Source: Callorhinchus milii
Taxonomy: Eukaryota
Length of the DNA stretch: 64,000 nucleotides
Reading direction: 5' to 3'
Assembly: GCF_018977255.1 (NCBI RefSeq)
Contig: NW_024704742.1
Span: 72,108,001-72,172,000 of the forward strand
Position numbers and translations under genes: made by a program. Positions 25,822 through 55,942 of the stretch are shown here, piece after piece (within the stretch, counting starts at the first letter, position 1; each line of letters opens with the position of its first letter). The notes under the pieces were generated by a model. That model ran no database searches, had not been told where the DNA came from, and worked only from the letters and a program-made list of their open reading frames with translations.

Positions 25822-26005
25822 TTGGGATGCGGGGTGCCTTGGGATGCGGGGTGCCTTGGGATGCGGGGTGCCTTGGGATGCGGGGTGCCTTGGGATGCGG
25901 GGTGCCTTGGGATGCGGGGTGCCTTGGGATGCGGGGTGCCTTGGGATGCGGGGTGCCTTGGGATGCGGGGTGCCTTGGGATGCGGGGTGCCTTGGGATGC
26001 GGGGT
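25822..26005. repeat. 17-bp minisatellite (ttgggatgcggggtgcc)
   Basis: About 11 near-identical copies. Confidence 0.95.
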
Positions 26006-26418: not shown

Positions 26419-26605
26419 GCGGTGGGAAGGTGGAGACCCTGGCGTTGCTAACCAGAAGACCCCGACCTGCCTGCTCCTGACGCCAGCTGCACAATTCCAC
26501 AGCTTTGGTTTCGCGGCCAGAGATTGTTACCACGACCTGGAGCCCGAGGAGGCTAAACACTGGCTCTACTTCGACAAGTTCAAAATGAAAATCCACAGCA
26601 CCAGC
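26419..26605 (+). CDS. HSPA12B: HSPA12B coding exon 4
   Basis: [22 protein letters not shown]...[15 protein letters not shown]; 187 bp. Confidence 0.95.
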
Positions 26606-26718
26606 GTAGGTGGCCTGTAGGTGTGGGGCGAGGGTCTCTGTACGTGGGGTGAGGGTCTCTGCATGGGGCGCGGGTGTCTGTGTGGAGTGAAATACAGAGA
26701 TTTCACTGTGTGTTCCAG

Positions 26719-26823
26719 GAGCTGACGATGGACACGGAGTTGGAAGCTGTGAATGGGAAGCGGCTCCGAGCGCTCCAGGTCTTCTCCCACGCACTCTCTT
26801 ACTTCCGACACCACGCCCTGATG
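26719..26823 (+). CDS. HSPA12B: HSPA12B coding exon 5
   Basis: [35 protein letters not shown]; 105 bp. Confidence 0.95.
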
Positions 26824-27047
26824 GTACGGATCCCCTACACCAGCACAACCCACATCTCCCACACACCACTCAGCTCACCCCCACGCACACCTCAGCCCTC
26901 CCCACACACACACCACCCACCTCACCCCCCCACCACACCTCACCACCCACACACCTCACCCCCCACACACCGCAACCCCCACCCCACGGGATGATCAATA
27001 TTATAAGATAATAAGGAATGAGAAATGGGGATAATGACTGAAGGGTA

Positions 27048-27322
27048 TGTGAGGTTACACAGTGTGAGGTTACACAGTGACTGGCTGTGTGAGGTTACAC
27101 AGTGTGAGGTTACACAGTGACTGGCTGTGTGAGGTTACACAGTGTGAGGTTACACAGTGACTGGCTGTGTGAGGTTACACAGTGTGAGGTTACAGCGACT
27201 GGCTGTGTGAGGTTACACAGTGACTGGCTGTGTGAGGTTACACAGTGTGAGGTTACACAGCGACTGGCTGTGTGAGGTTACACAGTGACTGGCTGTGTGA
27301 GGTTACACAGTGACTGGCTGTG
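27048..27322. repeat. gtgaggttacacagt(gactggct) compound minisatellite
   Basis: Direct observation; ends at the exon 6 acceptor. Confidence 0.95.
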
Positions 27323-27339
27323 TTCTGTGTTGTGTACAG

Positions 27340-27456
27340 GAGCTTGCCGATCATGCCCAGGAGCCACTAGAGGCGGAGGCTGTGCGCTGGGTGATCACAG
27401 TCCCCGCTATATGGAAACAGCCGGCGAAACAGTTCATGAGGGAAGCCGCATACCTG
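27340..27456 (+). CDS. HSPA12B: HSPA12B coding exon 6
   Basis: [39 protein letters not shown]; 117 bp. Confidence 0.95.
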
Positions 27457-27479
27457 GTGAGTGAGGGCGGCTGAGGGGG

Positions 27480-29027
27480 GCCTCAGTGTTGATGGGGGCG
27501 CTCTGTGTCGCGCGAGGTGGGGATGGGGCGCTCTGTGTCGCGCGAGGTGGGGATGGGGCGCTCTGTGTCGCGCGAGGTGGGGGGCGCTCTGTGTCGCGCG
27601 AGGTGGGGGGGCGCTCAGTGTCGCGCGAGGTGGGGGGGGCGCTCTGTGTCGCGCGAGGTGGGGGGGCGCTCAGTGTCGCGCGAGGGGGGGGCGCTCAGTG
27701 TCGCGCGAGGGGGGGGCGCTCAGTGTCGCGCGAGGGGGGGCGGGCGCTCAGTGTCGCGCGAGGGGGGGGGCGCTCAGTGTCGCGCGAGGGGGGGGGCGCT
27801 CAGTGTCGCGCGAGGGGGGGGGCGCTCAGTGTCGCGCGAGGGGGGGGGCGCTCAGTGTCGCGCGAGGGGGGGCGCTCAGTGTCGCGCGAGGGGGGGGCGC
27901 TCAGTGTCGCGCGAGGGGGGGGGCGCTCAGTGTCGCGCGAGGGGGGGGGCGCGGGGGGGGGGGCGCTCAGTGTCGCGCGAGGGGGGGGGGCGCTCAGTGT
28001 CGCGCGAGGGGGGGGGCGCTCAGTGTCGCGCGAGGGGGGGGGGCGCTCAGTGTCGCGCGAGGGGGGGGGGCGCTCAGTGTCGCGCGAGGGGGGGGGGCGC
28101 TCAGTGTCGCGCGAGGGGGGGGGGCGCTCAGTGTCGCGCGAGGGGGGGCGCTCAGTGTCGCGCGAGGGGGGGGGCGCTCAGTGTCGCGCGAGGGGGGGGG
28201 GCGCTCAGTGTCGCGCGAGGGGGGGGGCGCTCAGTGTCGCGCGGAGGGGGGGGGCGCTCAGTGTCGCGCGAGGGGGGGGGCGCTCAGTGTCGCGCGAGGG
28301 GGGGGGCGCTCAGTGTCGCGGGGGGGGGCGCTCAGTGTCGCGGGGGGGGGCGCGCTCAGTGTCGCGGGGGGGGGCGCTCAGTGTCGCGGGGGGGGTGGGA
28401 GCTCAGTGTCGGGGGGGGGGGAGCTCAGTGTCGCGGGGGGGGTGCGGAGCTCAGTGTCGCGGGGGGGGTGGGAGCTCAGTGTCGCGGGGGGGGGAGCTCC
28501 GTGTCGCGGGGGGTGGGAGCTCAGTGTCGCGGGGGGGTGGGAGCTCAGTGTCGCGGGGGGGTGGGAGCTCAGTGTCGCGGGGGGTGGGAGCTCAGTGTCG
28601 CGGGGGGTGGAGCTCAGTGTCGCGGGGGGGTGGGAGCTCAGTGTCGCGGGGGGGGGGGGGGGGGGGAGCTCAGTGTCGCGGGGGGGGGGGTGGGAGCTCA
28701 GTGTCACGGGGGGTGGGAGCTCAGTGTCGCGGGGGGGGTGCGCGTTCAGTGTCGCGGGGGGGTGGGAGCTCAGTGTCGCGGTGGGGGGGGTGGAAGCTCA
28801 GTGTCGCGGGGGGGGTGGGAGCTCAGTGTCACGGGGGGGTGGGCGCTCAGTGTCGCGGGGGGGTGCGCGTTCAGTGTCGCGGGGGGTGGGAGCTCAGTGT
28901 CGCGGGTGGGGGGGGTGGGAGCTCAGTGTCGCGGGTGGGGGGGGTGGGAGCTCAGTGTCACGGGGAGGTGGGAGCTCAGTGTCGCAGGAGAGGGCACTCA
29001 ATGTTGGAGGAGTGCTCAGTGTCGGGG
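27480..29027. repeat. G-rich CpG-dense minisatellite of about 24-26 bp (ctcagtgtcgcgcgaGn) filling HSPA12B intron 6
   Basis: About 60 units with variable G-runs. Confidence 0.97.
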
Positions 29028-29037
29028 TCTCTCCCAG

Positions 29038-29218
29038 GCGGGCCTGGCCTCCCGTGAGTTCGCGGAGCAGCTGTTGATCGCCCTGGAGCCTGAGGCAGCA
29101 GCGATTTACTGTCGAAAACTACGTCTCCACCAATTGCATGAGCTGAGCCCCCAGCACCCGGGGACCCGACCGGGCAATTGCCCCAGCCCCGGCTCCATCC
29201 ACTCCAGCTTCAGACAGG
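29038..29218 (+). CDS. HSPA12B: HSPA12B coding exon 7
   Basis: [33 protein letters not shown]...SSFRQ; 181 bp. Confidence 0.95.
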
Positions 29219-29712
29219 GTTAGTCAGCTCTCCTCCCACCCTTGCCCCCCCGCTCTCCTCCCGTCCCTGCTCTCCTCCCCCCACACCGTCCCCACTCTCC
29301 TCCCCTGTACCGTCCCCGCTCCCCTTCCCACCTGTCACCCCTCCGCTGTGGGGTGTGTTGGGGTGAGATGTTGTGGGGTGGAGAGGGTTGGGTTGGCGTG
29401 GGGTGGCGAGGGCTGGGATGGGCTGGATTGATGTGGGGTGGGGCTGGGGTGGAGCTGGGTTGCAGTGGGGCTGGGGTGGGGAGGGTTGGGCTGGGGTGGG
29501 GGGGGGGATTTGGGTGGGCTGGGCTAGGTTGGGCTGAGTTGGGGTGGGCTGGGGTGGGGGGGGGGATTTGGGTGGGCTGGGCTAGGTTGGGCTGAGTTGG
29601 GTTGGGCGGGGGTGGGGGATTTGGGTGGGCTGGGCTAGGTTGGGCTGAGTTGGGGTGGGCTGGGGTGAGTGAAATCGTAGGATCGAATGTGTTTTTTTCC
29701 TGTCTCCCACAG

Positions 29713-29799
29713 CCCGGGAACAGCTGAGACGTTCTCGGCACAGCCGCACCTTCCTGGTGGAGACAGGCGTTGGCGAGCTGTGGGCGGAGATGCAACCAG
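29713..29799 (+). CDS. HSPA12B: HSPA12B coding exon 8
   Basis: (A)[28 protein letters not shown]; matches recalled HSPA12B. Confidence 0.95.
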
Positions 29800-29967
29800 G
29801 TAGGGGAGGTGGGGCAGGGAGGGTCACATTCAGGGTGGGAGGGTGCGGGGGTAGGGGTCGTAAGGGGAGTGGTCACTGAGGAAAGGGGCTGTACAGACAG
29901 GGGGTCGTAGCACTGAGGGTTGTTTGTGTTTGACCCCTGACCTGCTCTGACCGTGTCGGTGTGACAG

Positions 29968-30072
29968 GTGACCAATACATTGTGGCTGACTGTGGTGGTG
30001 GCACCGTGGACCTGACGGTGCACCAGATCGAGGAATCACGGGGAACACTGAAAGAGCTGTACAAGGCCTCAG
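29968..30072 (+). CDS. HSPA12B: HSPA12B coding exon 9
   Basis: (G)[34 protein letters not shown]; phosphate-2 motif. Confidence 0.95.
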
Positions 30073-31580
30073 GTCAGCACTACACCCCACACCGCACAAC
30101 AGCACACCTCACTACACCTCACACCGCACCACACCTCACTACACAACACAGCTCATCACACCTCACCACACCACACTACACCTCACTACACACCTCACTA
30201 CATCTCACCTCAGTACACCTCACCACACCACACTTAGGTACCCAGCACTGGACAGGGGGTGGTTCGGATGTGGAACCAATTGGGGCTCAAGGCCAGTGGT
30301 GATGGTCAAAGGGTGTGAGTGTTGGGGGCAAGGGATTGAGGGTCTGAGGTCAATCAATGCTTTCCTTACAATCGATAGGATGAGCCCTTATTATATGCAA
30401 AGGAATCTTTCATCTCTGCCTCTCGCCTGGTTCAAAACGATGTGGGTTCATGCTCCACGTTGGGTCTCTGCGATCACAGTCCAGGCCCAGGCTCCAGTGT
30501 TGCGCTGAGGGGTTGGGGCAGAAGTGCCATCCTTTAGATGAGACATTAAACCAAGGCTCCATCTGAGCCTGTCCAGGTGGATGTGAAAGATCCCGCGGAG
30601 CTATTGGAAAAGAGAAGGGAAAGTTTTCTGTACTGAAAACACAACCCTCTGAGCCGTAGGTGAGGGTGGAGGAGACTGAGTGAGACCAAGACTGAGGAGA
30701 GAGCTGGGCTCATGGACACGGGGAGAAAGCCAGAGACTGAGAGCCCCATGTCTCTCACTCAGGTTCAGCCACTGCTGGACCTGGGCAGGTGGAGCAGAAT
30801 CACCACCTCGTGGCTAGAAATGGTATCACCTCAAGCCCCACAATGACTGGCTACAGGAACACACAGTCCACTCCTTGTGGGGAGCGGCCAGGGTTTCCAG
30901 GGCTCCACTGGCTCCAAAGTGACATGTTTGGCAACTGAATGTCAGATTCAAACCCACCTTCTGTGACTGGTCTCTCTTCCGGTTCATGAGCAAGGCAGGT
31001 CTGCAGTATTCCAGAGCACCGCTGATGACAGCACAGCCCTGTCTGGCTCGTTGGCAGGACCTGGAAGGGTAGACCAGTCACGGTGGGGGGGCAGGTAATT
31101 CTAACACTCAGCTCCTGTTAACCCTGCAAGGCAAAGCCCTAATGGGTAGGGTGGTCCTAGCTGGACAAGCAGCGGGAAAGCTTGCAAGACACCGATATCA
31201 ATGGCAAGCTATGTGCTTTTATATAGTGTAATGGTGGACTCCCTGAGCCAGGCAGGTACTGATACATAGACATAGTTTGTGACAAGCAGAGCTCAACGCA
31301 GCACACTCCATACACAACACACCTGCATGTGCTGTCAGTGTGCTGTAAACCCTCGGACATGCAAAATCCCTCCACATTAGATGCTATTAAACGTCAGATC
31401 TCTTTGTTCTTTTTTTCCATGGCCAGTATCTATTGTGTGCTCACATCACACCCTCACGTTGGTGTTATGTCTCCTGCTCAACACACTCTACTCACAGAGA
31501 GACAAAATTCGCTCACAGTGATATGTCTCTCGCTCACATTGGTGTTGTGTCTCTCATTCACGTTGGTGTCTCTCTCGCAG

Positions 31581-31839
31581 GGGGCCCTCACGGGGCGCTG
31601 GGTGTGGACCTGGCCTTCGAGGATTTGCTGGGACAGATTTTCGGCTGGGATTTCATTCGTTGTTTTAAGCTGAAGAGACCGGCCGCCTGGGTGGACCTGA
31701 TGATTGCCTTTGAGGCCCGGAAACGGACAGCATCACCCAACCGGCCCAACGCACTCAATATCTCCCTGCCCTTCTCCTTCATAGACTTCTACAGGAGGCA
31801 CAGATCACAGAGCGTGGAGGCTGCCATCAGGAGGAGCAC
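31581..31839 (+). CDS. HSPA12B: HSPA12B coding exon 10
   Basis: [16 protein letters not shown]...[17 protein letters not shown]...[15 protein letters not shown]; 259 bp. Confidence 0.95.
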
Positions 31840-32276
31840 GTAGGAGATCAGAGAGAGTGAGAGAGAGAGTGTGAGAGTGTGTCTGTGAGAGCAAGAGAGT
31901 GCATGCGTGTGAGAAAGTATGTGTGTGAGAGAGAGGAAGTGAAAGAGAGAGAGGGAGAGAGAGTGTGAGAGAGTGGGGGGGGGAGAATTTTAGAGAGAGA
32001 ATGTGTGGGAGAGAGAGTGAGAGAGGGATGTGGAGATAGAGAGGAGTAGGAGGATTGGATGGATAGGTGCTCTGAGAGCCAAGGCAGACACTCTGGACCG
32101 AATGGCCTCCTTCTGGGCTGAAAATTTCTAGGATTCTCTCTCTGTTCTCTCACTGTTTTATCTTTCTCTCTCTTTTCTCTCTGTTTACTTTCATTGTCTC
32201 TCTGTTCACTCTCTCTCTGTTCGCTTTCTCTCTCTGCATTCACACACTCTCTCTCTCTCTCTCTCTCTGTCCCCAG

Positions 32277-32380
32277 ATGTAACGCAGTCCAATGGTCCTC
32301 TCAGGGAATGCTGCGTCTCTCTCCTGAGGCCATTAACCAGCTCTTCCAGCCGACTATCAAACAGGTGCTTCAGCACATAG
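32277..32380 (+). CDS. HSPA12B: HSPA12B coding exon 11
   Basis: CNAVQWSSQGMLRLSPEAINQLFQPTIKQVLQHI; 104 bp. Confidence 0.95.
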
Positions 32381-32549
32381 GTCAGTAACCCCTTCACCTG
32401 TCCTCCCCCATCGCTCCCCCTCTACCTTGCTCCCCCTCCCCACACAGTCACCTCCCCCTCTCTCCAGCTCTCTCTCTTTTCTTTCCCCCCGCTCCCCATC
32501 TCCCCCTCCTGCTCCCCATCCCTCTCCCTCGGGCTCTGTCTCTTTCTTC

Positions 32550-33700
32550 TCAATAGTAAACTAGTGGTTTTACCCAGTTAAACTCCAGCAAAGGGTGATA
32601 GAGCTAATTCAGGAGACTCCAGGCCAGTCAGCTTAATATTGGCTGTGGATGAGGTATTTGGAATCCATAATAAAAGATGAAGTAACTAGTCATCTGGAGA
32701 AGGAGAATATAATTGTGTGCAGCCAACATAGGTTCATGAAAGCAAGGTCACACTTGACCAACCTTAGCAAATTCTTTGAAGATATAACCAATAAAATAGA
32801 TGAGGGAAGTGCGGTGTATCTGGATTTCCAGAAAGCTTTTGATAAAGTGCCACATGAGAAGCTCGTGAGTAAAATAGGGGTGTGTGGAGAGGCAGCAGAA
32901 TGGATTAAAGAATGGTTAGGAAACCAAAAGCAAAGGGTAGGAGTCAAGAGCATCTCCTCAGAATGGCAAGAAGCAGGAAGTTACGCAGGGATCCATGTTG
33001 TGACCACTGCTGTTCACCATATGCATAACTAATTTGGATTCAGATATAGGTGTGGTGTCAACGTTTGCACATGACACAAAACTGGGGGTGGGGGGCTATA
33101 AACAGTAAAGACGATATGCAGAAGAATGCAGGTAGATATAAACAGGCTTGCAGGATAGGCAGACTGGTAGCAAATGAAGTTTAATATAGAAAAATGCAAA
33201 TTAATTCACAGTTTGGTGTCATGTGCAAATTTATGGCATAAATCCAGAAATGTTTAACCAAGAAAATTTATTTCGTTGGCTGACCAAAAAGGTTGGCCAC
33301 CACTGATATAGATGGTAGGAACATAAGAGGAATAGCGAAGCAAAGAGATCTGGGGATTCAGATCCACAAATCTCTAAAAATAGCTACACAGGTGGATAAG
33401 GCTATAAAAAGGCCAATGGGGTCCTGGACTTTATATCCAGAGGCTAGCGTATAAAGTGAGGAGATGTGATGTTTAAAGGGGGACCTAACACAGAGGGTAG
33501 TGAGATTGTGGACTCGCTGCCTGAAGTGGTGGTTGAATCAGATAATGTAGATGCATTCAAGAGGAAGCTGAACCTTCACATGAAGCAGAGGGAAATAGAG
33601 GGTGTGGGAGGGAGTAAGTTGTGGGCCAAGACTTGTGTGGAGTATAAACACCGGCACAGACTGGTTGGGTCGAGTGGCCAATTTTCATGCTGTACAGTCT
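32550..33700 (+). mobile_element. CR1 LINE fragment
   Basis: VYLDFQKAFDKVPH RT motif, frameshifts, and a 3'UTR remnant. Confidence 0.9.
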
Positions 33701-34035
33701 GTGTAAATCTCTCTCTCTCCTCCCCCCTCCCACTGTCATCGTCTCACTGTCCCTCTTTCCCTCCTTTCTCTTCCTTCCTTCCTCCCCTCCACCCGCCCAC
33801 CCCACTGTCTGTCTCTCCCTCTCAATCCTCTTATCTCTCTCACACACTCCCCATCTCTCTTTCCGCTCTCTCTTTCCTCCCACTCTGTCTCACTCACCCT
33901 TTCTCCCCTCAATGTCTCATTATCTCCCTCCTCTTTCTCACTCTCTCTCCCCTCCTCTCTCTCATTCTCTTCCTCTTTCTCATGCTCTCACCCGCTCACT
34001 CCCTATGTCTCTCTCTCTCTCTCTCTCTCACACAG

Positions 34036-34688
34036 AGAACCTGATGCGAAGACCTGAGGTCGGGGGGGTGCGGTTCCTCTTCTTGGTGGGGGGCTTTGCC
34101 GAGTCGGCGATGCTGCAGCAGGCAGTGCAGGGGATGCTGGGCGGCAAGTGTCGGGTTATCATCCCCCAGGATGTGGGGCTGACCATCCTGAAGGGGGCGG
34201 TGCTGTTTGGCCTGGACCCCGGGGTGGTGCGTGTGCGGCGCTCGCCCCTCACCTACGGGGTGGGGGTCCTCAACACCTTTGTGGAGGGCAAACACCCGCA
34301 GGACAAGCTGCTGGTGAAGGACGGTGTGCGCTGGTGCACTGATGTCTTTGACAGCTTCGTGGCAGCCGATCAGTCAGTGGCGGTAGGTGAGGTGGTTCAC
34401 CGCAGCTACACTCCAGCCCGGCGTGGCCAGAGCAAGATCCTCATCAACATCTACTGCAGTGCAGCCGACAGCGTGGCCTACGTCACTGAGCCGGGCGTCC
34501 GCAAGTGCGGCACCATCAGCCTGGACCTCCCACAGGCATCCCCTGACCAGCCCCCCACCGGCAGCTCCCGGCACCGCCGAGAGATCAGGACCAGCATGCA
34601 ATTTGGTGACACAGAGATCAGAGTGACCGGCATGGACATGACCACCGCCCGCTCCGTCAAGGTCGCTATCGACTTCCTCTCCAATTAA
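34036..34688 (+). CDS. HSPA12B: HSPA12B last coding exon
   Basis: ...[11 protein letters not shown]...[10 protein letters not shown]...IDFLSN*; the 12 exons sum to 2061 nt = 686 aa plus stop. Confidence 0.96.
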
Positions 34689-41478: not shown

Positions 41479-41694
41479 ATGAGGAGCAGAGGGGGGCGGG
41501 GCAGCTCCCCGCGAGGGGCAGTGACTGACAGTCGGTGGCCAGCGAGGGCAGTGATAGGCTGTTCTCTGTGTATTTACCTGACGTTGCTCGCTCCCAGTGG
41601 GAGTGAGAAAGTCTATCACAGCCGTGACCACTCCGACATCAGGGAGAGGATTTGGATGCGAGCCAGGCCAGTTCTGACCTCCGAGTCAGCCCAG
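41479..41694 (+). CDS. MMP21-like coding exon 1 (signal-peptide-like segment and start of the prodomain)
   Basis: Hydrophobic VIGCSLCIYLTLLAP, then EKVYHSRDHSD...AQ/gtaagg, resembling the MMP21 FHSRDRSD...AQ segment; the start codon choice is uncertain. Confidence 0.8.
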
Positions 41695-43047
41695 GTAAGG
41701 CATTGCCAAGCACGGGCACCACCACCAACACCCAGCTCTTGAAAACGGAAACCAACACCCAGCCCCTGAAAGCGCGCACCACACACCAAAACCCAGTCCC
41801 TGACAGCAGGTACCACACACCAATACTCAGGCCCTGTCAGCAGGCATCACACACCAACACTCAGCTCCAGTCACTGACCATAGGTACTGCCCACCAACAG
41901 ATACTGCCAGCCAATGAGCACTACTAATGGGCACCATATGCCAATGTCAACCACCCGCTCATAGGCACTGCCCAACCCTAGTATCATACAGGTCTGGTGC
42001 CCAAGCCTGCAATGCCCAATACTCAATTAAGGTAATAATCCCTTCAAAACAAAAACTTTTTGGTCACTCAATCAACAACTGTTTGTGGGACACTGCCACG
42101 TTTCACCCACAAAATATACAGTCAATTTTCTTTACAGTATATTCTGTGAAGCACTTTGAGACATCTCGAAAATATGATAAGGTGCTATGTCAAATACAAG
42201 GATTAGCATTATTATTAATGTCAATCATTCAATGCCCAACAAACAGTGTCCAACACAACCCTGAGTGGAGCGATGGTTGGGAGTGAAAGAATTCTTGAAC
42301 AATGAGATGAAACGGCTGAAGGGTTGACACCTGGGGTTAGGGTTAGGGTTAGGGTGCCTAACCCTAGATGGTCGGAGCCCAAAGAGCCTGTGCTTGTGTA
42401 ACCATTCCAAGATTTTGCAGAACTGTGGAAATTCCGTCTTAACCTGGAAACTGGTTTCTTTTTAGGAACTGCAGAAAATCAGGGTCCACATGAAGAAGGG
42501 ATGAGAATTCCCCCGGTTCTGTGTAATTTCAGTGTCTAACAGACAGAGAACACGAGGAACTTCCACTCCTTGTTCGTACACAACTATTCATATCCCTCCT
42601 TGTCAAGAATTTATCAAATTCCTTTCTCACTGTTCCAATAGCCGTTAAAGTCACTAGGGGCGGGGAATCCTTCCACTCAGCTCCCCATGGTAGTGTGGTC
42701 CTAGCTGGACAAGCAGTGGGAAAGCTTACCAGACAGTGATCTCAGTGGCAAGCAATGTGGTTTTAGCTGATTAGAATCCAGCAGTTGCCCCCAACGCACA
42801 TTCTGGGATTCCCCAAGCCTTGGCTCTTGCCAACCTGCGCCTAATACTCTCCGGAATTAGGTAAACAGGATGCTTCTCTCCAATGTATCTCTGGGATTTC
42901 CATGTGTCGGTGGGGTACGTGGAATTCTCAGCTTGGTTTACAGACTCTAAAGCATGGTGATGGGTTTCCGCCTGTGTCCCCGTCTGATCAAAAAAAATCA
43001 ATGGGAATCACACCGCAGTAAGTCTCCCCCTCTCTCTGTCTGTCCAG

Positions 43048-43879
43048 GAATATCTAGTGAAATATGGTTGGACGAAGCCGGTGAGATGGGAGCTTCTGGC
43101 ATTCCGGGGCGTGACGGTTCCGCTGAACGATGACCCTCCGCCCCCAGATATCTCCGAGCTGCTCTCGGAGGGCCGCTACGCTCGCCGACACATCCAGGAA
43201 GAGGTGCGGCCACAGGAGATGAAGCCGCAGTACGTCAATGCCCTCAGAAGCTTCCAGAAAGCCAATGGGCTGCCTGTCACCGGAATCCTGGACATGGCCA
43301 CCACCGACGCCATGAACAAGCCTCGGTGCGGTGTTCCTGACCACAAGACCCCAGACAATGAGCCAGAACCAGACGGGGGGGAGGGTCGTGCCCCGCCCTC
43401 TAGAACCACACCTGCTCCTGGCACTGTCTCTAAGGCTGGCCCCACCCATGGCCCTACCACAGGCCCCACCCCTGCTCCAGGCCCCATCCCTAGTGCCTAC
43501 TTCACCCCTGCTGCCGCCCCTGTCCCCATCCCCGGCCCAGATCTCGTCCTTGGCCCCACCCCTGATGTCATCACCCCGGGCTCTGCCCCCGGCCCCGCTC
43601 GGGCAAGGCGGTTCCTACAGCTTGTGTTGGATGCCGGCAGGTGGCCGCGAGGCTCGGCAGATTTCCTGGACGCGGCGACTCTGCAGCTGGGCTTCACCAA
43701 GACACGGCTGAAATGGCGGATCCTGGCCGAGGGCTACAGCTCACAACTGAGTGTGGAGGACCAGCGTCTGATCCTCAGGCTCGCCTTCCGCATGTGGAGC
43801 GAGGTCACCCCACTCACCTTCCAGGAGGACCTGCTGGCCAGCGGCTCCCACATCGACATCAAGCTGGGCTTCGGGACCA
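43048..43879 (+). CDS. MMP21-like exon 2 (prodomain, cysteine switch, furin site, start of the catalytic domain)
   Basis: EYLVKYGW...PRCGVPD...RARR...LAFRMWSEVTPLTFQED...DIKLGFGT. Confidence 0.93.
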
Positions 43880-44194
43880 GTGAGTCACTGCCACACAGGC
43901 ACAGGAAGAGGGACAGGCACAGTGCTAGGCACCAGCACAGGAATAGGCACCAGCACAGGAATAGGCACAGGGCTAGGCACCAGCATAGGGTCAGGCACCA
44001 GCACAGGGACAGGCACCAGCACAGGTACTAGGACAGGGACAGGCACCGGGACTGTCTCCCTCACCATCCTGGTTAGAGGGGGAGGCGTGAGTGTGCCAGT
44101 GAGTGTGCCAGTGTGTGCCAGTGTGTGCCTGTGATTGTGCCTGTGAGTGTGACAGGCACTGACTGGTGCCTTGTGCCTGTGCTGTTGCCCACAG

Positions 44195-44334
44195 AGAGAC
44201 ACCTAGGCTGTTCTCAGGTCTTTGACGGGACGGGCCGTGAGTATGCCCACGCCTGGCGCTTGGGGAACATTCACTTTGATGACGACGAGCACTTTGTGGC
44301 CCCGACCAGCACGGAAGGCATCAGCTTACTGAAG
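44195..44334 (+). CDS. MMP21-like exon 3
   Basis: [33 protein letters not shown]...GISLLK; 140 bp. Confidence 0.95.
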
Positions 44335-45149
44335 GTCTGGCTCTGTTTATCATTTACAGCACAGGCCAATAGGGCAGCTCCAGCACACAGCGTGCAGGCA
44401 AGCCGGGCCAGCAAGAGCCCGCAAGCCAGCCAGCGGCACATTACACACACCAACATCCTCCGGGGGAGGGGGTAAGAGGGGTCTCACCACAGCTGAAATA
44501 AACTGCCTCCGAGGTGAGGTTCCTGGCAATGGAATATCAGAATCAAGAGGATTGGGGGAGGGGGTTGTTGGGGTTGCGGGTGGGGGTGAGGTAAGTGGAG
44601 GAGGGGGTAACAGTGCTCGAAAGGACATTCAAAAAGAAAGATTTTTAGGTGAGTTTTGGAGGTAAGGGAGGGGGGAGGTGGAGTAACTCCAGGAGGGAGG
44701 TGGTGAGGCGGAGTGACTCCTCCAGCTTGTGAAAAGAGTAGCTGTGAAGTCCGGCATTGGAACAATTGAGTCTGCAACAAGGGGCCTAACCTCAAGACGG
44801 TGACTGGAAGAGTTAATTGGGAGGTTAGAAGAAAGTTATTCATACACAGAGTGTTATTAGAGCATGGAATGGTTTAGCTGGCGAAAGTGAGACCAGAATA
44901 ACACTTAAAAGGAAATGGGATTAGAGTAGAGAGCTCCAGTGGGGGAGCGAGCACCAGCAACAACAACTTGCATTTAAGACAATGTCTGAAGCCTAAAACC
45001 CAAAGAAATTTGGGAGCCAGGACTTTTGTGCAAATTGTTGATGTCTACATGAGGTTATTTTCTGTTTTTGGTATCTTTATGAGGCCACTTCCTGCAGTTG
45101 ATGACTTGATGACATTCCTCACTGTTGTTGGCATTTCCTCTCCTCTCAC

Positions 45150-45905
45150 AACTTCTTCCTCCACATCCACTCTGCCACCCACATCCACTGCCACCCACTT
45201 GATCTGGTGATAACCTGGGGCCTCAGCATTTGGGACATTACCATCACCGATAAAGCCATCTTGGACTATTACTTCACCTCCCTTAACTCCTCAATCCCTC
45301 TCCCCGCTGGCTCCCAATCCACCTCCATCTCATACCACCCTGGAAAAAAATCATCCCCTCCCTCTCTGCTCCCTTGGAGTTATCTGAACTCCTCCCACTC
45401 TGGACTTCTTCCTGCAATGACCTACCTCCTCGGTCATTCTCCTCCACAACTCCCACTTGCCACTCTCGATGCCCTTGCCCCCATTACCTACCGAACTGGT
45501 TCCTACTCACTCAAGTCACCCTGGTACACCAGCAACCTCCGGTCCCTCAAGGCACAAGTGCGTGCCACCGAATGCACCTGGCTCAAATCTAATTTAATGG
45601 TCCATCTGCAGATCTGTTTGGACCACATTAAAACGTATCCCTCCACCCTTGCCTCCACTAAATCATTCTTCTATTCCAGGATAGTCTTGGAGGCCAAGGA
45701 CAACCCCAGGCTCCTCTTTTCCACCACCAACCAGCTCTCCTTACCTCCCAGCTCCACCTCCTTGTTCCTCTACTCACAGACTTCATCAACCTCTCCTTGT
45801 CCACTGACACCTTTCCTACCCCTTAAAAACAGCTGTCATCACCACTATCCTCAAAAGACCTTCCCTGGACCCATCCCTGTTCTCAAATTACTACCCCATC
45901 TCTGT
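45150..45905 (+). mobile_element. L2 ORF2 internal fragment
   Basis: TLDALAP...SPWYTSNLRSLK...KDNPRLLFSTTN. Confidence 0.8.
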
Positions 45906-46173
45906 CACATTCACTGGCACACTCACTGGCACAGCTTATGTCCCCGGCGTAGGGCTTGAACCCACAATATGGTTGCCAACTGCCCAGTTTGGGACCAGAA
46001 ATTCCAGATTTAAAGGCATCTGTACAGTCTGGTTAGAAGCATTGACCAGACACCAAAAGACCAGTTATTGCCTATGGTCTGCAGATAGAGGAGAAGAAAC
46101 CAAGCAGGGTAACTACAACTCCCACGTTCCCGCGCCCCCGGCATACACAGAGCTCAGAACATGCGCATAAAAT

Positions 46174-46548
46174 GGAGTCCTATAGCTTAGTGGTTAGGGC
46201 ACTCACCTCGCAAGTAAGAGGTCCTGGGTTCAATATCCCAGCAGGGCAAAACGTTGGGCAAGTTTCCTTACTCCACATGGCTGTTTACCTAGCAGTAAGT
46301 AGGAACCCAGTTTTTATTCGGTTGGAGGATCGCTTTTCTGGGGATAATAATCCCTTCAAAAATAATAATAATAATTTGATCACTCAATCCACAACTGTTT
46401 GTGGGACACTGCTGTGCTCAATTGGCTACAGTGTTTTGCCCACAAATATACTGTCAATTCACTTTACAGTATATTCTGTGAAGCTCTTTGAGACGTCGCA
46501 AAGATATGATAAGGCTCAATATCAAATGCAAGGATTATTATTATATTA
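46174..46548 (+). mobile_element. Full-length tRNA-SINE
   Basis: Head, body and (ATT)n tail are all present. Confidence 0.9.
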
Positions 46549-46825
46549 CCTCCCTCCCAGGAAGATAGGCACATGTCAGTGCCTATTTAATTGCTGAGAA
46601 CGGTTTCATTCCAGCGAGAGGAGTGAGCAGCTGGAGCAGGAATCAGGAGGGACTGAGGCCAGGACATTGGAATCAATTGAGATAGGAAAACTCTCAGGTG
46701 GAGATTCTGAGATCAAACAGGCAAAACACTTTCCTCATCCAACCTGCCCTGATTGTGAGGGTCTGTGACAGCAGAGATCGACTTGACCTGGGGTAGGGGT
46801 GGGGCTGAGCCCATCAGAGGTGCTA

Positions 46826-47292
46826 GAGTCCTGTAGTGTTGTGGTTAGAGCACTCGCCTCGCAAACGAGAGGACCGGGTTCGATTCCTGGGTGGGGCAAA
46901 ACCTGAGACAAGTTTCCTTACTCCACACACCTCTATTTACCTAGCAGTAAGGAGGAACTTGGTTGTTAGTCGGTTGGCAGATCGTTTTCTGGGGGTCCCT
47001 AAAAAATAAAAATAAAACATTTAAAAAAATTGATAGTCATGACTATTTGTGGGACGTTGCCGTGGTTCAATTGGCTGCTGTCTTTCGCTCACAAAATCTA
47101 AACAACGTGATAGAGTGCTATAGTATTAGTAATAATCCTTGAATTTGATATAGCATCTTATAACATTGTGAAGAGCTTTGAGACATCTCAAAGCGCTTCA
47201 CAGGATATACTGTAAAGTGGAATGACTATATATTGTGGCAGCCAATTGCTCACAATTGCTATATCAAATGCAGAGATTATGATATTATTATA
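46826..47292. mobile_element. Cluster of tRNA-SINE pieces in both orientations
   Basis: A + strand copy from 46826 and a - strand tail at about 47125-47250. Confidence 0.75.
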
Positions 47293-47366
47293 TTGTGTTG
47301 TGGTGGGACGGCTGTGCTGGGGGCGGATGGACTGAATTCTGCCTGTTGTATTGCGATTCCCCACAG

Positions 47367-47508
47367 GTGGCGGTGCACGAGATCGGCCATGTGCTGGGTT
47401 TGCCTCACATGCAGCGCGCAGGCTCCATCATGCAGCCTAACTACATCCCCCACGCTTCCACCCTGGAGCTGGACTGGGAGGACAGGAAGGCCATCCAGAA
47501 GATCTACG
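47367..47508 (+). CDS. MMP21-like exon 4 (zinc-binding motif)
   Basis: [14 protein letters not shown] (HExxHxxGxxH) and Met-turn SIMQP; 142 bp. Confidence 0.96.
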
Positions 47509-47589
47509 GTGCGTCCACTCACCACGGGCTGGAGGGGGCTCGTGTGGAGCACAAACAGTGCAGACTGGCTGGGCCAAATGACCTGTTTG

Positions 47590-48055
47590 TGTGCTGTGCT
47601 AGGCTGTGCTCAGTGCTAGGCTGTGCTCTGGGCTGGGTTCTGGGCTATGCTGTTCTATGAGCTGTGCTCTGGGCTGTGCTGTGCTTTGGGTTGTGCTCTG
47701 TGCTGGGCTGTGCTCTGGGCTGGGCTATGCTCTGGCCTGTGCTCTGGGTTGGGTTGTGCTCTGTGCTGTGCTCTGGGCTATGCTGTGCTCTGGGCTATGC
47801 TGTGCTCTGGGCAGGGCTGTTCTGTGGGCTATGTTGTGTTCTGGCCTGTGCTATGCTCTGGGCCGGGCTGTGTTCTGCGTGGCTCATTTTGTGAACTTTG
47901 TTGTTGTAACTGAGGTTAAACCCACTCTGTCTCTCTGTGTGTCTGTGTGTATGTCTGGCTGTGTGTGTGTATCTATGTGTGTGTGTGTGTCTGTCTGTAT
48001 GTGTGTATATCTATGTGTGTTTGTCTATCTGTGTGTGTATCTGTGTGTTGTGTCT
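47590..48055. repeat. (GCTGT/GGGCT) and (GT)n simple repeats in MMP21-like intron 4
   Basis: Direct observation. Confidence 0.9.
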
Positions 48056-48065
48056 GCGTATACAG

Positions 48066-48323
48066 GCGTGTGTAAGGGGAACTTTAATACCGTCTTTGAC
48101 TGGGTTCGCAGAGAGTATAACCAGTTGGGGGAGGTCACGTACCGCTATAACACTTATTTCTTCCGTAAGAGCTGGTACTGGATGTACGAGAACCGTAAGA
48201 ACCGCACGCGGTATGGGGACCCTATCCCCCTGTCAGTGGGCTGGCGGGGAATCCCTCCGTCCAACCTGGATGCCTTTGTCCATATATGGACGTGGAATAA
48301 AGACACCACCCTCTTCTTTAAAG
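48066..48323 (+). CDS. MMP21-like exon 5 (hemopexin domain)
   Basis: [16 protein letters not shown]...[17 protein letters not shown]...DAFVHIWTW; 258 bp. Confidence 0.95.
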
Positions 48324-48630
48324 GTAGATGTTGCTCTGGAATGTAGTGCAAACTCACAAATATACCAACCTCCTTTTCACTCACTTCCACTGTACACACT
48401 CCTAATGGCCCAAACCCCTTCCCAGTGTAGAGGAGTGTCAAAGCTGATCTCCAATGTTAGAGACAGAAGAAAATGTCAAAGCTGATCCCCAGTGTTAGAG
48501 ACAGAGAAGGGCAGCGAGGCTGATCCCAATATTGGAGACAGAGCAGCAAGGCTGATCCCAGTGTCAGAGAAGAAGACAGCAGTGAGGCTGATCCTACAGT
48601 GTTGGAGACAGAGGAGAGCAGCGAGGCTGA

Positions 48631-49226
48631 TCATAGAATTATACAGCACAGAAGGAGGCCATTCGGCTGAGGCTTAACCAGTGTTTTATAAATGTTCATC
48701 ATAACTTCCTGACTTTTGTATTCTTTGCCCCTATTTATAAAGCCTAGTATCCCGTACGCTTTTTTAACAGCTTTATCTACCTGTCCTGCCACCTTCAAAG
48801 ATTTACTGATCTCTCTGTTCCTTCACCCCCTTTAAGATTGTACCATCAGCTTATATTGCCTCTCCTCATTCTTCCTCCGAAAATGCATCACTTCGCATTT
48901 CTTCACATTAAACTTCATCTGCCACGTGTCTGCCCATTGTCCCCTTGCAGTCTGCTACTATCCTCCTCACTGTTTGCTACTTCTCCTAGCTTAATATCAT
49001 CCTCAGTCTTGGAAATTGTACTCCCTATAGCCAAGTCATTTATATAGATCAAAAACAGCAGAGGTCCCAATACTGACCCCTGGAGGTCACCACTGCACAC
49101 TTCCCTCCAGTGAAAAACAGCCAGTCACCACCACTCTCTGCTTTCTGTCTTCCAGCCAGTTCTGTATCCATGCTCCACTGTCCCTTTAATACCGTGGGCT
49201 TCTAAGTTGCTTACAAGTCTCTTATA
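48631..49226 (-). mobile_element. CR1 fragment inserted into a CR1-derived tandem array
   Basis: GSVLGPLLFLIYINDL on the minus strand; CR1 3' tail at 48631. Confidence 0.85.
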
Positions 49227-49924
49227 TGATCCTAGTGTTAGAGACAGAGGAGAGCAGTGAGGCTGATCCCAGTGTTGGATACAGAGGAGAGCAGTGATGC
49301 TGTACCCAGTGGTTGAGAGATGAGCTGTGAGAATTGGACAAGCTCCGACTGTTCAGACTGGAGCGATGTCTCAGAGGAGACCTTAGAGGTTTCTATAAGA
49401 TTGAGAGAAGAAACCCAGAACAATGCTCTCAGATACACCAGGACAAGACGTCATGGGGTCAGGAGTGTGAGCAGCAATTCCAGGACAAAGATCTGGAATG
49501 TATTGACGGGGGAAATTGACAGCTCGGAACAGGGTCACCAGGAAGGTCGCTTAATAAACATTGATGGGAGGACAGTTGTGAGAGGATGAAGGGTCTTCTC
49601 CCACCCAAACCTCTTGTGTGAATCACATGTGACTTGTTTACAGATCCTTTAGTGTGGCAATCACTGAATGTAGGCGGAGATTACAACAACAAAATTACAT
49701 TTGTTTAGTGCCTTTCACGTTGAGAGGAGGTCCTAAGGGGCTGGCCCAAGATTATTAATGAATGTGTGTGTGAGTCTCACTGTGTGTGTGCGTCACTGTG
49801 TGTGTGTGTGTGTGTGTGTGTGCGTCACTGTGTATGTCAGTCTCACTGTGTGTCCTTCTCAATGTGTGTGTCAGTCTGACTGTGTGTGTGTGTGTATGTC
49901 AGTCTGACTGTGTGTGTATGTCAG

Positions 49925-50097
49925 GCACACAGTACTGGCGCTATGACAATGACAATGACCGGGTGTACACGGAGGACTGGAAGGGGAACCGATACCCCAA
50001 GCTGATCACCCAGGGCTTCCCTGGCATTGAGGGCCCCATCGACACAGTCTTCTTCAACAAGAGAGATCACATCATCTACTTCTTCAAGGGATATAAC
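49925..50097 (+). CDS. MMP21-like exon 6 (hemopexin domain)
   Basis: [17 protein letters not shown]...[12 protein letters not shown]...IYFFKGYN; 173 bp. Confidence 0.95.
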
Positions 50098-50751
50098 GTG
50101 AGTGTGAGTGCCACCTGTCACGTATCTGCCTCCCCGCGCACCACACCATCCATCTCCCCCCATACTGTTCATCTTACTCCCCCACACTGTTTGTCTCCCA
50201 CACACTTCTGTAAACACCCCCAGGTCAGTAACAGCATGGATTAGAGAAAGAATAAGACTCCCTTTAGATTGATGTGTTGAGGACAGGAGCGGGGTGAGGT
50301 CAGGAAAGATGAATTGGTGCAGTGCGGTGTTGAGAGGAAACAGTGGATACAGGACACTGGAGATAAGGAGGTCTGAGAGATTGTGGTGCTGGAGATAGGG
50401 AGCCGGGTGAGGAGGGGGTCAGAGCTGTGTCAAGGAGCAGACCCCACCCACCCCACCTCAGCCCTGTGACTCTGTTTGTCGCTGGTGGAGGTGTAGCTGA
50501 GATTTTCCCACGCGTATGCCAACTCCCAGCTCGATGAACTTCCCAACTATTCCCTCCACAAGCTGTAGACTATCCAGAACTCTGCAGCGGCTGGCTCCAC
50601 TAGCTCTGCTCACACTCCTGACCCCATGACGTCTTGTCCTGGTGTATCTGAGAGCATTGTTCTGGGTTTCTTCTTCCCATCTTATATAAACCTCTGAGGC
50701 CTCCTCTGAGACATCGCTCCAGTCTGAACAGTCGGAGCTTGTCCAATTCTC

Positions 50752-52040
50752 ACACCCAACTCTACCTTTCCTCCTCTACCCTCAACTCCATGACCACCGA
50801 TGTTCTGACAGCCTGCCTGTCTGACATTGAGTCCTGGACGAGAGACAACTTTCTTCAGCGCAACGTGCGTAAAACTGAGGCCCTCCTGATTGGCTCGCGT
50901 CAGCGCCTCCGCACCTCAGGCGCTGACAGCATCAGCATCCAAGGCTGCATTCTCCACCTCTCAAAGCCATCAGGAACCTCGGGGTTCTGTTCGACCCTGA
51001 GCTGTCCTTTCTCCCTCATATCCGCACCACAACTGGCACCGCCTTCCATCACCTCCGGACCATCGCCAGACTACGGAACTACCTCACCCCTCACGCTGCT
51101 GAAACCCTGGTCCACGCCTTTATCACCTTAAGACTGGACTATGGGAACTCTCTCCTCGATGGCCTTCCCGGCACCTCCCTCCACACTGCAGGTCATTCAG
51201 AACTCTGCAGCTCGTGTACTGTCCCGCACCAGGCTTCGCGACCACATCACTCCCACCCTCGCTCGCCTCCACTGGCTCCCCATCCCCCAGAGGATCGAAT
51301 TCAAGATCCTCACCCTCACCTACAAGGCCATTCATGGCCTCGCTCCCTCCTACCTCTCCGACCTACTATCCCCTACGTACCTGCCCGTACCCTCCGTTCC
51401 TCTGGCTCCGGTCTACTCCACATCCCCCGCCCCAACCGCCCTACCATCGGTGGCCGGGCCTTCAGCCTCTCAGCCCCGAGGCTCTGGAGCTCTATTCCCC
51501 AGTGCCTTCGCCTCCTCCCTTTCCTCCTTCAAGGTCGGTCTCAAGACCTTTCTCTTTGACCTTCAGCTCCCCTCTCGACTCTCTACCCCCTCCTCGCTCC
51601 CTCCCTTCCCTCCCCCTGACCATTTCCCCCCAATGCTCGGGTCCCTACCCAACTGTACAGCGCCTTGGGACGTTCTCGTCTCTATAAATAGAATCTTGCT
51701 GTTGTAGAGTTTAAAATCCTCGTCCTCGCCTTAAAAGCTCTCCATGGCCTTGCTCATTCCTACCTCTGTAACCTGCTAACCCCATATCAACCTGTCTGCT
51801 CCCTTCGCTCAGGAGGCACTGGTCTACACAAGGTCCCCCGCGCCCCTGCTCCACCATCAGCAGTCGGGCCTTCAGCCTCTCCGCCCCCACCCTCTGGTAC
51901 TCATCCCGGAGTCCATCTGGCTTACCTCCTTCAAGGCTTGTCTCAAGACCTTCCTTTTCAACCATGCCTTTGGTCACCTCCCCCCTCCCCCGGTCCCAAC
52001 CCCCAGCTCAGGTGCAAACCCCTCATTGTACAGCACCTCA
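50752..52040 (+). mobile_element. L2 3' fragments (two tandem 3' ends)
   Basis: TQLYLS...KTEALLIG...LHWLPIPQRIEFKIL. Confidence 0.9.
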
Positions 52041-52119
52041 GGTGCAAAACATAGTGGCTAGAATCCCCCCGGTTCGATTCCCAGGCAAGCCAAAATTCCC
52101 GACATTCTCGCCCTCACTG

Positions 52120-55100
52120 AAATCTGAATCACTCCAGGCGACACCTTCCCCCTGATAGAGGCCACACAACCCAGCTACTCCTACATCACACGCCACGACC
52201 TAACCACTGTGTTGTGGTGTGGCTCTCATCTCCCGGTCCCCACTCGGCCTATCCCCTTACTCCTCTGAAACCTTCCCCTCCTTAGAGCACCTTATCCTTT
52301 ACCACCCTGCCAACCTTTCCTTGAAAATTCTCCTTATAAATCGCACCCCCCAAGCCCTCCCCCACCTTCATCCCCGACATCTCCACCCTCCTATCTTCCC
52401 TCTCCCTCTGCTCTGAACACCTCCTCATCCTAGGAGACTTCAACCTTCACTTCACCCCTCCTGCTCTATCTCTGCTGACTTCTCCTCCCTTATCTCCTCC
52501 CTCAACCTCTCCTTCCATATCCACTCTGCCACCCACGTCCGTGGTCAGCCCCTCGCCGTCTCGGACCTCACCATCATCGACAAAGCGATCTCGGACCATC
52601 ACTTCATCTCCCTTAACTCCTCAAAACCCCCCACTCTCGGCTGCCTTGGAGTCATCTGAACTCCTTCCCCCCTGGGCTTCCTCCCGCAATGACCTATCCT
52701 CCTTGATCACTCTTCTCCACAGCTCCCTCTCCTCCACACTTGATTCCCTTGCTTCCCTCTCTTCCCAAACTGTCTCCTATTCACATAAGTCACCATGGTA
52801 CACCAGCCACTTCTGCTCCTTTAAAGTACAGGTGCGTGCCGCTGAACGCACCTGCTTAAATCAAATTTAATGGGCCATCAGCAGATCTGGCTGGACCTTA
52901 TCAAATCTTACAGCTCCGCCCTCACCTCCGCTAAATCGTCGTTCTACTCCAAGACAATCTTGGAGGCCAAGGACAACCCTAGGCTCCTCTTCTCCATCAC
53001 CAACCGGCTTCTCTGCCCACCCTCTCATGCCTCGCCATCCTCACCTCAAATGCCAACTGTGAGCAGATGCTAGGTTCCTTGAATCCAAAGTTGAAGGGAT
53101 TTGCTCAGCTGCCTCTGCTATTCCGTCTGCTACCCCCTTCCCATCTCCTCCTCCCACCCCGTCCCCTACCCATCCCTCCCTCCACACCTTCAAACCTGTC
53201 TCCCACTCCTCTTTCACCACCACTATAACCTGCCTGAAACCGACCAACTGCTCCCTTCGCCCCATCCCTACCCCTCTTCTTACCTCCCAGCTCCACTTCC
53301 TTATTCCTCTACTCAGACATCATAAACCTGTCGACTGGAACTGTTCCCATCCATTAATAACTGCCGTTATCACTCCTTAAAAAACCCTCCCTGGACCCAT
53401 CTCTATTCTCAAACTACCGCCCCATCTCCAACCTCCCTTTCCTCTCCAAAGTCGTGGTTGCTTCCCAGCTTTGCTCCTTCCTCTCCTGCCACTCCCTTCA
53501 CTAACCCCTTCAATCGGGTTTCTGTGCCACCCACAGCACAGAAACAGCTCTGGTCAAAGTGACAAATGACATTCTGTCCATCTTCCACCAGGGCTCCCTC
53601 TACCTCCTCGTCCTCCTTGACCTCTCTGCTGCCTTCAACACTGTCGACCACTCTTATCTTTATCCACCTGCACTCCTCTCACCTCAACCTTCACGGCTCT
53701 GTCCTTGACTGGTTCAGATCATACCTCTCACACCACCTCCACTTCATCTCCACAAACGGTTTCTCCTCTAGCCCCTGTACCGTCTTGTGCGGCGTTCCTC
53801 AGGGCTCTGTCCTTGGTCCCCTCCTCTTCAATATCTATATGCTCCCTCTTGGTGACATTACCCACAGACTTGGGGTCAAATTCCACATGTATGCGGATGA
53901 CACCCAACTGTACATCTCTGCCTCCACCCTTGACTCCAGGACCACTGATGTCCTGAGAGAATGTCTGTTAGACATCAACAACAACAAAATTACATTTATA
54001 GAGCTCCTTTCACGTCGGAAGGACGTCCCAGGGCGCTAGACAGTCAGGGGTCAGGATCCAAGCATGGAGGAGGCGTGGGGTAGGGATGAGGGAAGGCAGA
54101 AAGGTGGGAGGGCGACTGAAGGAACAATCGAAGAGGAAGGTCTTGATATCGGCCTTGAAGGAGGCAAGGGAGGATGCGATGTGAAGGGACTGTGGGATGG
54201 AGTTCCAGAGTGTGGAGGCAGAGAGGCTGAAAGCCCGGCCACCGATGGTAGGACGGATCAGGTGGGAGATATAGAGCAGGCCGGAGCCCGCTGAATGGAA
54301 GGAGCGGACAGGTTGGTAGGGAGTTAGCAGGTTAGAGAGGTAGGAGGGGGCTTTGAAAGTGAGGATGAGGATCTTGTATTCGATCCTCTGAGGATCCTGG
54401 ATGAGAGCTAATATTCTTCAGTTGAAAGACAAGACCGAGGCTCTTCTGATTGGCTCCCATCAGTGCCTCCACACCTCAGGTACTGACAGCATCACCATCC
54501 ATGGATGCACACTCCACCTCACTAGGCCAGTCCAGAACCCTGATGCCTTTTTTGACCCAAGACTATCCCTTCTACCTCTCATCTGTGCCATGACCCGCTC
54601 TGCCTTCCCCCACCTCCGCAACATTGCCTGGCTTCGCCACTGTCTCACACCACAGCCGCCAAAACCCTCTTACACGCTTTCATTAAATCGAGGCTTGACT
54701 ATGCAAACTCCTTGCTTATCGGCCTCACCACCTCCTCCCTCCATAGGCTGCAGATCATCCAGAACTCTGCAGCCTGTGTCCTCTCCTGCACCAGACTCCC
54801 TGACCCTATCAACCCCATCCTCACCCTACTCAACTGGCTTCCCATCACACAGAGAAGACAGTTCAAGATCCTGGTCCTCACCTTCAAAGCCCTCGTTGTT
54901 CCCACCTATCTCTGCGACCTCCTAACCCCCTACCATCCTGCTCACTCCCTCCGCTCAGCGGGCTCCGGCCTGCTTCATGTCCCCTACCTCACTTGCCCCA
55001 CTTTTGGCGGGCGGGCCTTCTGCCATTCTACTCCCACCCTCTGGAACTCCATCCCAAAGTACCTCCATCTCGCCCCCTCCCTTGCCTCCTTCAACATCTC

Positions 55101-55238
55101 AAGACCCTCCTCTTCGACCGTGCCTTCAATCAACCTGCTTCCCTCCCTGCCCTCCACCCTCTCCAATCCTGACCCCCAGCTTGGATCCGAAACTCTGTCA
55201 GTCCAGCTCCTTGGACATGAAATGCAATTTTGTTGTTG
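52120..55238 (+). mobile_element. Long degenerate L2 ORF2 (endonuclease to RT to 3' end), interrupted by an inverted L2 3' end at about 53979-54394
   Basis: ILGDFN, GVPQGSVLGPLLFNIYM and YADDTQLY motifs; the host sequence gacatcaa / tcctggatgagagct resumes after the insert. Confidence 0.9.
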
Positions 55239-55543
55239 AAACCTTAGGCAACATGAAACCTTATTCCACATGCCTCTGTTTACCAAGCAGTAAGTAGGAA
55301 CCTAGCTTTTAGTCGATTGGCAAAATGGTTCCGGGGGTAATAATCCCTTTAAAAAAAACCGAAAATTTGGTCACTTAATCCATGACTGTTTGTGGGACAC
55401 TGCTGTGTGCAATTGGCTGCTGCGTTTCGCCCACAAAATACAAAATCAATCCACTTTACAGTATATTCTGTGAAGCATTTTGAGATGTCTAGAATACATG
55501 ATAAGGTGCTAAATAAAATGCAAGGATTATTCTTATTATTATT
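55238..55543 (+). mobile_element. tRNA-SINE, headless copy
   Basis: Body and tail match the family. Confidence 0.85.
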
Positions 55544-55636
55544 GGGACGTTCTCCTGACTTGAAAGGCGCTGTGTAAATATAAATTATTGTTGTTGCCCA
55601 ACCCAGTGCTGACTGCTGTCTTTTGCTGCCCGATAG

Positions 55637-55942
55637 GTGACAGCCTTTAACACTGACCAGAATGCCCGCCTTGACGGCTGGCCAAAGCGCATCGTGGACG
55701 TATTCCCCCCGGTGGTCCCAGGAGACCACCCACTGGGGAACCTGGACTCCGTCTACTTCTCCTACAGCCTTAGTGCTGTCTTCATGTTCAAGGATGCAGA
55801 GTTCTGGCGGGTGGTGGGCGAGCGGGACCGGGAAAGGAACTCCTCATTGCCCCTTAACAGCCTCCTCCCCGCCCGCTCCATCCACCAGCAGTGGTTCGAC
55901 ATCTGTGACGGTGATGCACCCCTCGTCTTCGGCTCCGAGTAG
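55637..55942 (+). CDS. MMP21-like exon 7 (last)
   Basis: VTAFNTDQNARLDGWPKRIVDVFP...QWFDICDG...SE*; the 7 exons sum to 2067 nt in frame. Confidence 0.94.
   Translation: MTAFNTDQNARLDGWPKRIVDVFPPVVPGDHPLGNLDSVYFSYSLSAVFMFKDAEFWRVVGERDRERNSSLPLNSLLPARSIHQQWFDICDGDAPLVFGSE

Follow-up and report, generated by a model that had tools for sequence, protein, structure and literature searches.

A chimaera MMP21 paralogue linked to HSPA12B belongs to one of four gnathostome MMP21 clades, likely products of early genome duplications

We analysed a 64,000-nucleotide stretch of the Callorhinchus milii genome (RefSeq assembly GCF_018977255.1, contig NW_024704742.1, positions 72,108,001 to 72,172,000), hereafter the window, which carries an intact MMP21 paralogue. 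Sequence comparisons make it very probable that this gene represents one (clade C) of four MMP21 clades, likely derived from the two early vertebrate genome duplications, and that it encodes a predicted secreted, furin-activated zinc metalloproteinase. Given the four clades, the pairing of clade C with clade B and a conserved linkage to HSPA12B, the gene is very likely an ohnologue and one member of a quartet. The earlier note had proposed that it was the genome-duplication sister of MMP21. The idea of a retained paralogue stands, as the gene falls outside orthologous MMP21 and its HSPA12B linkage is common to sharks and sturgeons, but it is one of four copies and not the direct sister of MMP21.

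The exon-intron model comprises seven coding exons (Table 1) and six introns, all of the GT-AG type, and amounts to 688 codons with a single terminal stop and no internal one. The intact seven-exon MMP21-type gene with hemopexin repeats that had been recognised in the window is thus confirmed by an open 688-residue frame, regular introns and the presence of all MMP21 hallmarks. A pseudogene is ruled out by this open frame and the intact motifs. Matches of shark, chimaera and macaque MMP21 proteins in tblastn searches fall on these exons, and the same queries detected no second MMP copy within the 64-kb window. The predicted signal peptide has a hydrophobic core starting at residue 24, and its cleavage is likely to occur before E43, by homology (alignment with the N-terminus of the Heptranchias clade-C protein). 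The furin-type site corresponds to R-X-[KR]-R rather than to literal RXKR, and its counterpart in macaque MMP21 is RSRR. C355 is the sole cysteine of the catalytic domain and is common to canonical MMP21 proteins; C446 and C677 delimit the hemopexin domain.

Exon 2 is 100% identical to a C. milii protein named "matrix metalloproteinase-21-like" (P0001, XP_007906776.1), in which Pfam detects Peptidase_M10, Hemopexin and PG_binding_1 domains. XP_007906776.1 (RefSeq) and A0A4W3INP1 (UniRef) are models of the same gene as the window's, both known from automatic annotation only, and the name "MMP21-like" carries no orthology. Both database models are devoid of a signal peptide and have the second half of exon 7 replaced, unlike exon 7 in the window, which aligns with homologues up to the final cysteine. 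Over residues 288-677, which cover the mature part, the window protein shows 72-80% identity to eight elasmobranch C proteins, 63-68% to five bony-fish or caecilian C proteins and 61-65% to 17 A proteins. All the latent-protease motifs are intact, and these motifs, together with the 72-80% identity to elasmobranch orthologues, suggest that the gene is under selection.

Table 1. Position of the MMP21-type gene, its main motifs and its neighbours in the window (position 1 is the first nucleotide of the window)
Feature	Position	Strand	Remarks
TEX261-type gene (Erv26 family), two exons	4443..5195	-	Pfam Erv26
HSPA12B	25001..34688	+	upstream neighbour, synteny marker; 5' limit approximate
Exon 1	41479..41694	+	start codon, predicted signal peptide, propeptide start
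Exon 2	43048..43879	+	propeptide, cysteine switch, long linker, furin-type site, catalytic domain start
Cysteine switch PRCGVPD	43321..43341	+	fits MMP21 subfamily PRCGXPD
Propeptide insertion, 86 aa	43342..43599	+	between switch and RARR; Pro/Thr-rich (24 Pro, 11 Thr)
Furin-type site RARR	43600..43611	+	cleavage predicted
Exon 3	44195..44334	+	catalytic domain, MMP21-type cysteine (RHLGC, C355)
Exon 4	47367..47508	+	zinc motif plus Met-turn (M418)
Zinc motif, HEXXHXXGXXH type	47376-47408	+	exon 4
Exon 5	48066..48323	+	hemopexin domain start (C446)
Exon 6	49925..50097	+	hemopexin repeats
Exon 7	55637..55942	+	hemopexin domain end (C677), stop
Intermediate-filament gene, 4 exons, 405 aa	58023..63995	-	downstream neighbour; short-tailed

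Homologues were collected through protein searches that returned 316 and 393 matches, the best 120 of each being listed, and through phmmer on cluster representatives, 20 of which were looked up, adding amphioxus, tunicate, hagfish and other outgroups as well as further vertebrate copies. Four groups were already apparent in the first trees, built with FastTree on 84 and 77 sequences. Our main tree was a careful IQ-TREE analysis of 43 sequences hand-picked for balance, from which near-duplicates, fragments, most teleosts and mammals, and long-branched batoids were omitted. It recovers clades A (100/96), B (99/96), C (100/97) and D (100/100), as well as the grouping of B with C (100/98), and each of the four gnathostome clades holds both cartilaginous and bony members (bootstrap 99-100). 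Clade A is canonical MMP21, mammals included, and clade B extends from sharks to frogs, while clade C unites the window gene with proteins of sharks, sturgeons, paddlefish, coelacanth and a caecilian. The same four groups (SH-aLRT 93, 94, 95 and 98) are found with a 42-sequence set containing four invertebrate outgroups, in which the vertebrate MMP21 clade, window gene inside, is separated from invertebrate MMP21-like proteins (SH-aLRT 98), the lamprey stands tentatively beside B+C (87) and the hagfish takes no firm place. A FastTree of 261 sequences assigns 178 of them to A, 31 to B, 27 to C and 16 to D, leaving nine outside, with a support of only 63 for clade D in this set, which includes fragments. 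As the groups received their names only once the first trees had been inspected, the table of groups is no independent test.

Approximately unbiased (AU) tests were run on the 42-sequence set. A pairing of A with C is rejected (p=0.0086) and the gene pairs with B, which eliminates it as the direct sister of canonical MMP21; from the sequence comparisons, it is sister to B, not to A. A pairing of A with D is allowed (p=0.63) and scores 1.26 lnL above the free tree, so the best tree found is one that holds A+D. The resulting symmetric topology, ((A,D),(B,C)), is the shape expected from two doublings and is the best-scoring one, its A+D pair being unproven. Trees and AU test place the duplications after the divergence of invertebrate chordates and before the split between sharks and bony fishes.

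Genomic locations provide further support. In five out of five chromosome-scale assemblies of sharks and sturgeons, which are related and therefore not independent and in which the contigs are large chromosomes, clade C and HSPA12B lie on a contig of equal size: Heptranchias (198562713), Heterodontus (287946412), Chiloscyllium (181181776), Acipenser ruthenus (117442607) and A. oxyrinchus (108659001). Location on the same chromosome was here judged from equally sized contigs, not from gene order, with HSPA12B as the single marker. The fragmentary assemblies of A. sinensis and Polyodon show no match between C and HSPA12B and are uninformative. In the four of these five species for which canonical mmp21 is listed, it lies on a separate contig. 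Clade A can be placed beside UROS, because a teleost clade-A model (Pempheris P0102) is fused to a UROS domain, probably through an annotation join of adjacent genes. The second doubling produced pairs of large and small chromosomes, and it fits this pattern that the contig with C is larger than the contig with B in all eight species with chromosome-scale values for both. We take human HSPA12A, INA and MMP21 to be located on 10q and HSPA12B at 20p13. The position of human MMP21 is given as 10q26.2 in one survey (PMC1867822).

Under the scenario we favour, one chordate MMP21 gene would have given rise to an A/D and a B/C lineage, and then to four copies before cartilaginous and bony fishes separated; mammals and teleosts would have kept only A, and C would survive in a chimaera, sharks, rays, sturgeons, paddlefish, coelacanth and a caecilian. 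We regard it as very unlikely that the four clades go back instead to independent small-scale duplications, combined with translocations, in stem gnathostomes. Such a history would accommodate the single flanking marker, the lack of significant support for A+D and the location of A and D (P0036 and P0049) on the same 97-Mb contig in Cetorhinus, unlike in the other species listed. However, it accounts less readily for the existence of exactly four clades, for the symmetric topology scoring best, for Chiloscyllium punctatum and Narcine bancroftii each having a member of every clade, spread over four contigs, and for the persistence of C next to HSPA12B, whose paralogue HSPA12A is presumably near MMP21 in humans.

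Two other explanations deserve next to no credence. The same domain layout and motifs, and the 61-65% mature-part identity to canonical proteins, could suggest that the window gene is the canonical MMP21, relocated within the genome, and the earlier note had named two observations that would indicate such a translocation: nesting within orthologous MMP21 and absence of any other MMP21-type gene in the genome. Neither was found. Placement of the window gene inside clade A is rejected by the AU test (p=4.5e-8), and C. milii has two further MMP21-type proteins, the canonical P0050 (named mmp21 by NCBI, clade A) and a third copy, P0042, both retrieved from protein databases rather than sought at the UROS locus directly; the AU test and P0050 together refute a translocated orthologue. 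An expansion confined to cartilaginous fishes might be suspected, as all the nearest relatives of the gene are chondrichthyans and the C proteins of bony fishes are placed on short internal branches, but it is refuted by the AU test, in which a single clade of all 12 chondrichthyan sequences is rejected (p=4.9e-50). Sturgeon, paddlefish, coelacanth and caecilian proteins moreover belong to the well-supported clade C, and the sturgeon copy is itself linked to HSPA12B. We therefore retain an origin through genome duplication.

Losses were deduced from the best 120 of 316 and the best 120 of 393 matches, and absence from these lists is no proof of absence. Among the matches listed, all 64 mammalian and all 69 teleost sequences (hand counts) fall in A, and named frog sequences fall in A or B, plus one Bombina protein in D, with none in C. 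Clade C was thus apparently lost in mammals, judging from the sequences recovered, and it seems to be missing from teleosts and frogs too, among the sequences listed. Its listed members come from a chimaera, sharks, rays, sturgeons, paddlefish, coelacanth and the caecilian Microcaecilia; three unnamed proteins (P0361, P0378 and P0382) are closest to the caecilian C protein and could widen this range. Only B, C and D copies are listed for Microcaecilia (P0019, P0044 and P0216, all named "matrix metalloproteinase-21" by NCBI), and only B and D copies for the lungfish Protopterus (P0040 and P0218). That no clade-A protein is listed for these two genera may reflect either a listing effect or a real loss of canonical MMP21. 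The Bombina clade-D protein (P0359) is fast-evolving, the other frog paralogues listed being B. It is also one of five clade-D proteins of bony vertebrates (with P0200, P0216, P0231 and P0357) that show no match to the cysteine-switch pattern, either because the models are incomplete or because of real divergence.

By its organization, the window gene resembles MMP21 of humans and Xenopus, with which it shares a signal peptide, a cysteine switch, a long insertion ahead of the furin site, an extra catalytic cysteine, the HEXXHXXGXXH motif, a Met-turn and a hemopexin domain. It differs in belonging to a separate clade that predates the split between sharks and bony fishes, in adjoining HSPA12B rather than UROS, and in a much longer propeptide linker. 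According to Fu et al. 2009 (PMC2656525), the MMP21 subfamily has an insertion of 20-44 aa between the switch and an RXKR furin site; that of the window gene is present, but 86 aa long. The distance from the switch to the catalytic domain is 122-241 aa in all nine chondrichthyan C sequences versus 52-85 aa in the A and B sequences measured, which points to an enlarged propeptide in clade C. The linker of the Heptranchias clade-C protein contains repeat-like sequence. The predicted signal peptide would direct the protein into the secretory route, the cysteine switch would keep the enzyme latent and furin would cut off the enlarged propeptide; the catalytic and hemopexin unit would then act extracellularly, as in MMP21.

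MMP21 is a human heterotaxy gene and has been proposed to be a flow-carried left-right morphogen (Ott et al. preprint, 10.1101/2024.10.13.618030), and two other studies (PMC12344233, PMC11398420) use its presence or absence to mark species with a ciliated organizer. Most likely, clade C is expressed in a domain of its own and does not take the place of canonical MMP21 in the left-right organizer. A search of sequencing runs listed none of RNA containing this sequence, a result that speaks neither for nor against expression. Although possible, a role in left-right patterning is not what our analysis favours. We hold it unlikely that clade C operates within the ciliated organizer module, whether redundantly with MMP21 or complementing it. 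Such a role would agree with the retention of all functional motifs; in addition, the MMP21-type matches listed include no named sauropsid protein, in line with the loss of Mmp21 in reptiles reported in PMC11398420. On the other hand, C is absent from the listed sequences of mammals, teleosts and frogs, which are lineages using a ciliated organizer, and laterality is strongly disturbed in Xenopus mmp21 crispants (10.1101/2024.10.13.618030) despite a second paralogue, MMP N3 (PMC2656525). This suggests that MMP N3, at least, does not compensate. A broader proposal is also unlikely: MMP21 would be all that mammals kept of a complete four-member ohnologue family, the other three members, among them the window gene, would be secreted factors of the left-right organizer in sharks, sturgeons, coelacanth, lungfish and amphibians, and in some lineages the module may depend on one of these instead of canonical MMP21. 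Our literature search on the left-right organizer of chondrichthyans found nothing.

It is not unusual for cartilaginous fishes to have retained ohnologues. In earlier studies, MMP21 was described as keeping a 1:1 ratio from Ciona to human, without amplification in vertebrates (Huxley-Jones et al. 2007, PMC1867822), and an amphibian-specific duplication was suggested as possible for MMP N3 upon its discovery in Xenopus (Fu et al. 2009, PMC2656525). Our trees contradict both statements. MMP N3 is similar to the window gene in being an additional MMP21-type gene of a vertebrate outside the mammals, and probably belongs to clade B, where most frog MMP21-like sequences fall. Another parallel is the hidden paralogy of Nodal1 and Nodal2 (PMC12344233), also early vertebrate duplicates of a left-right gene with uneven retention, although they belong to a different family and, in the present case, three of the four copies are missing from the mammalian sequences listed. 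Mmp21 is treated as one gene, either present or lost, in three studies (PMC12344233, PMC11398420, PMC5872349), and neither "paralog" nor "duplicat" nor "mmp21-like" occurs in the Ott et al. preprint. Beyond MMP N3, our search of the literature found no multi-paralogue vertebrate MMP21 family; subscription papers (e.g. Szenker-Ravi et al. 2022 and its extended data) may bear on this point.

Besides correcting two printed statements on the MMP21 family, a four-member family implies that surveys of MMP21 in fishes and amphibians can confuse paralogues with one another, as illustrated by the shared database name of the B, C and D proteins of a single caecilian. It also yields testable siblings of a heterotaxy gene, namely three natural variants with which to ask which features of MMP21 make a left-right signal, a question to which the existing Xenopus assay is suited.

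The direct neighbours of the MMP21-type gene are HSPA12B upstream and an intermediate-filament gene downstream. The identification of HSPA12B in the earlier note is upheld: its last exon is 100% identical to a C. milii HSPA12B-like protein, and among the 120 matches listed for this query, 112 are named 12B, two are named 12A and six are without a family name. TEX261, which had also been reported nearby, is supported by Pfam Erv26 matches on two exons, the Erv26 family being, we assume, that of TEX261. The open frame convergent with it (approximately 584-1456, plus strand, 290 codons), previously labelled ANKRD53, has no Pfam or protein-database match. As for the supposed neurofilament-like gene, Pfam confirms a genuine intermediate-filament gene, which can be placed only as a neurofilament/vimentin-type protein; with 405 aa and almost no tail, it is not a typical NEFL or NEFM. 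Two late introns presumably lie at neurofilament-type positions, a further intron is located in the head, and the gene may be a further paralogue of the NEFL/INA group that was retained. Finally, broken frames resembling LINE-type reverse transcriptase and endonuclease were seen by eye at 50400-55200 (much of intron 6), 16300-16900 and 59100-60100.
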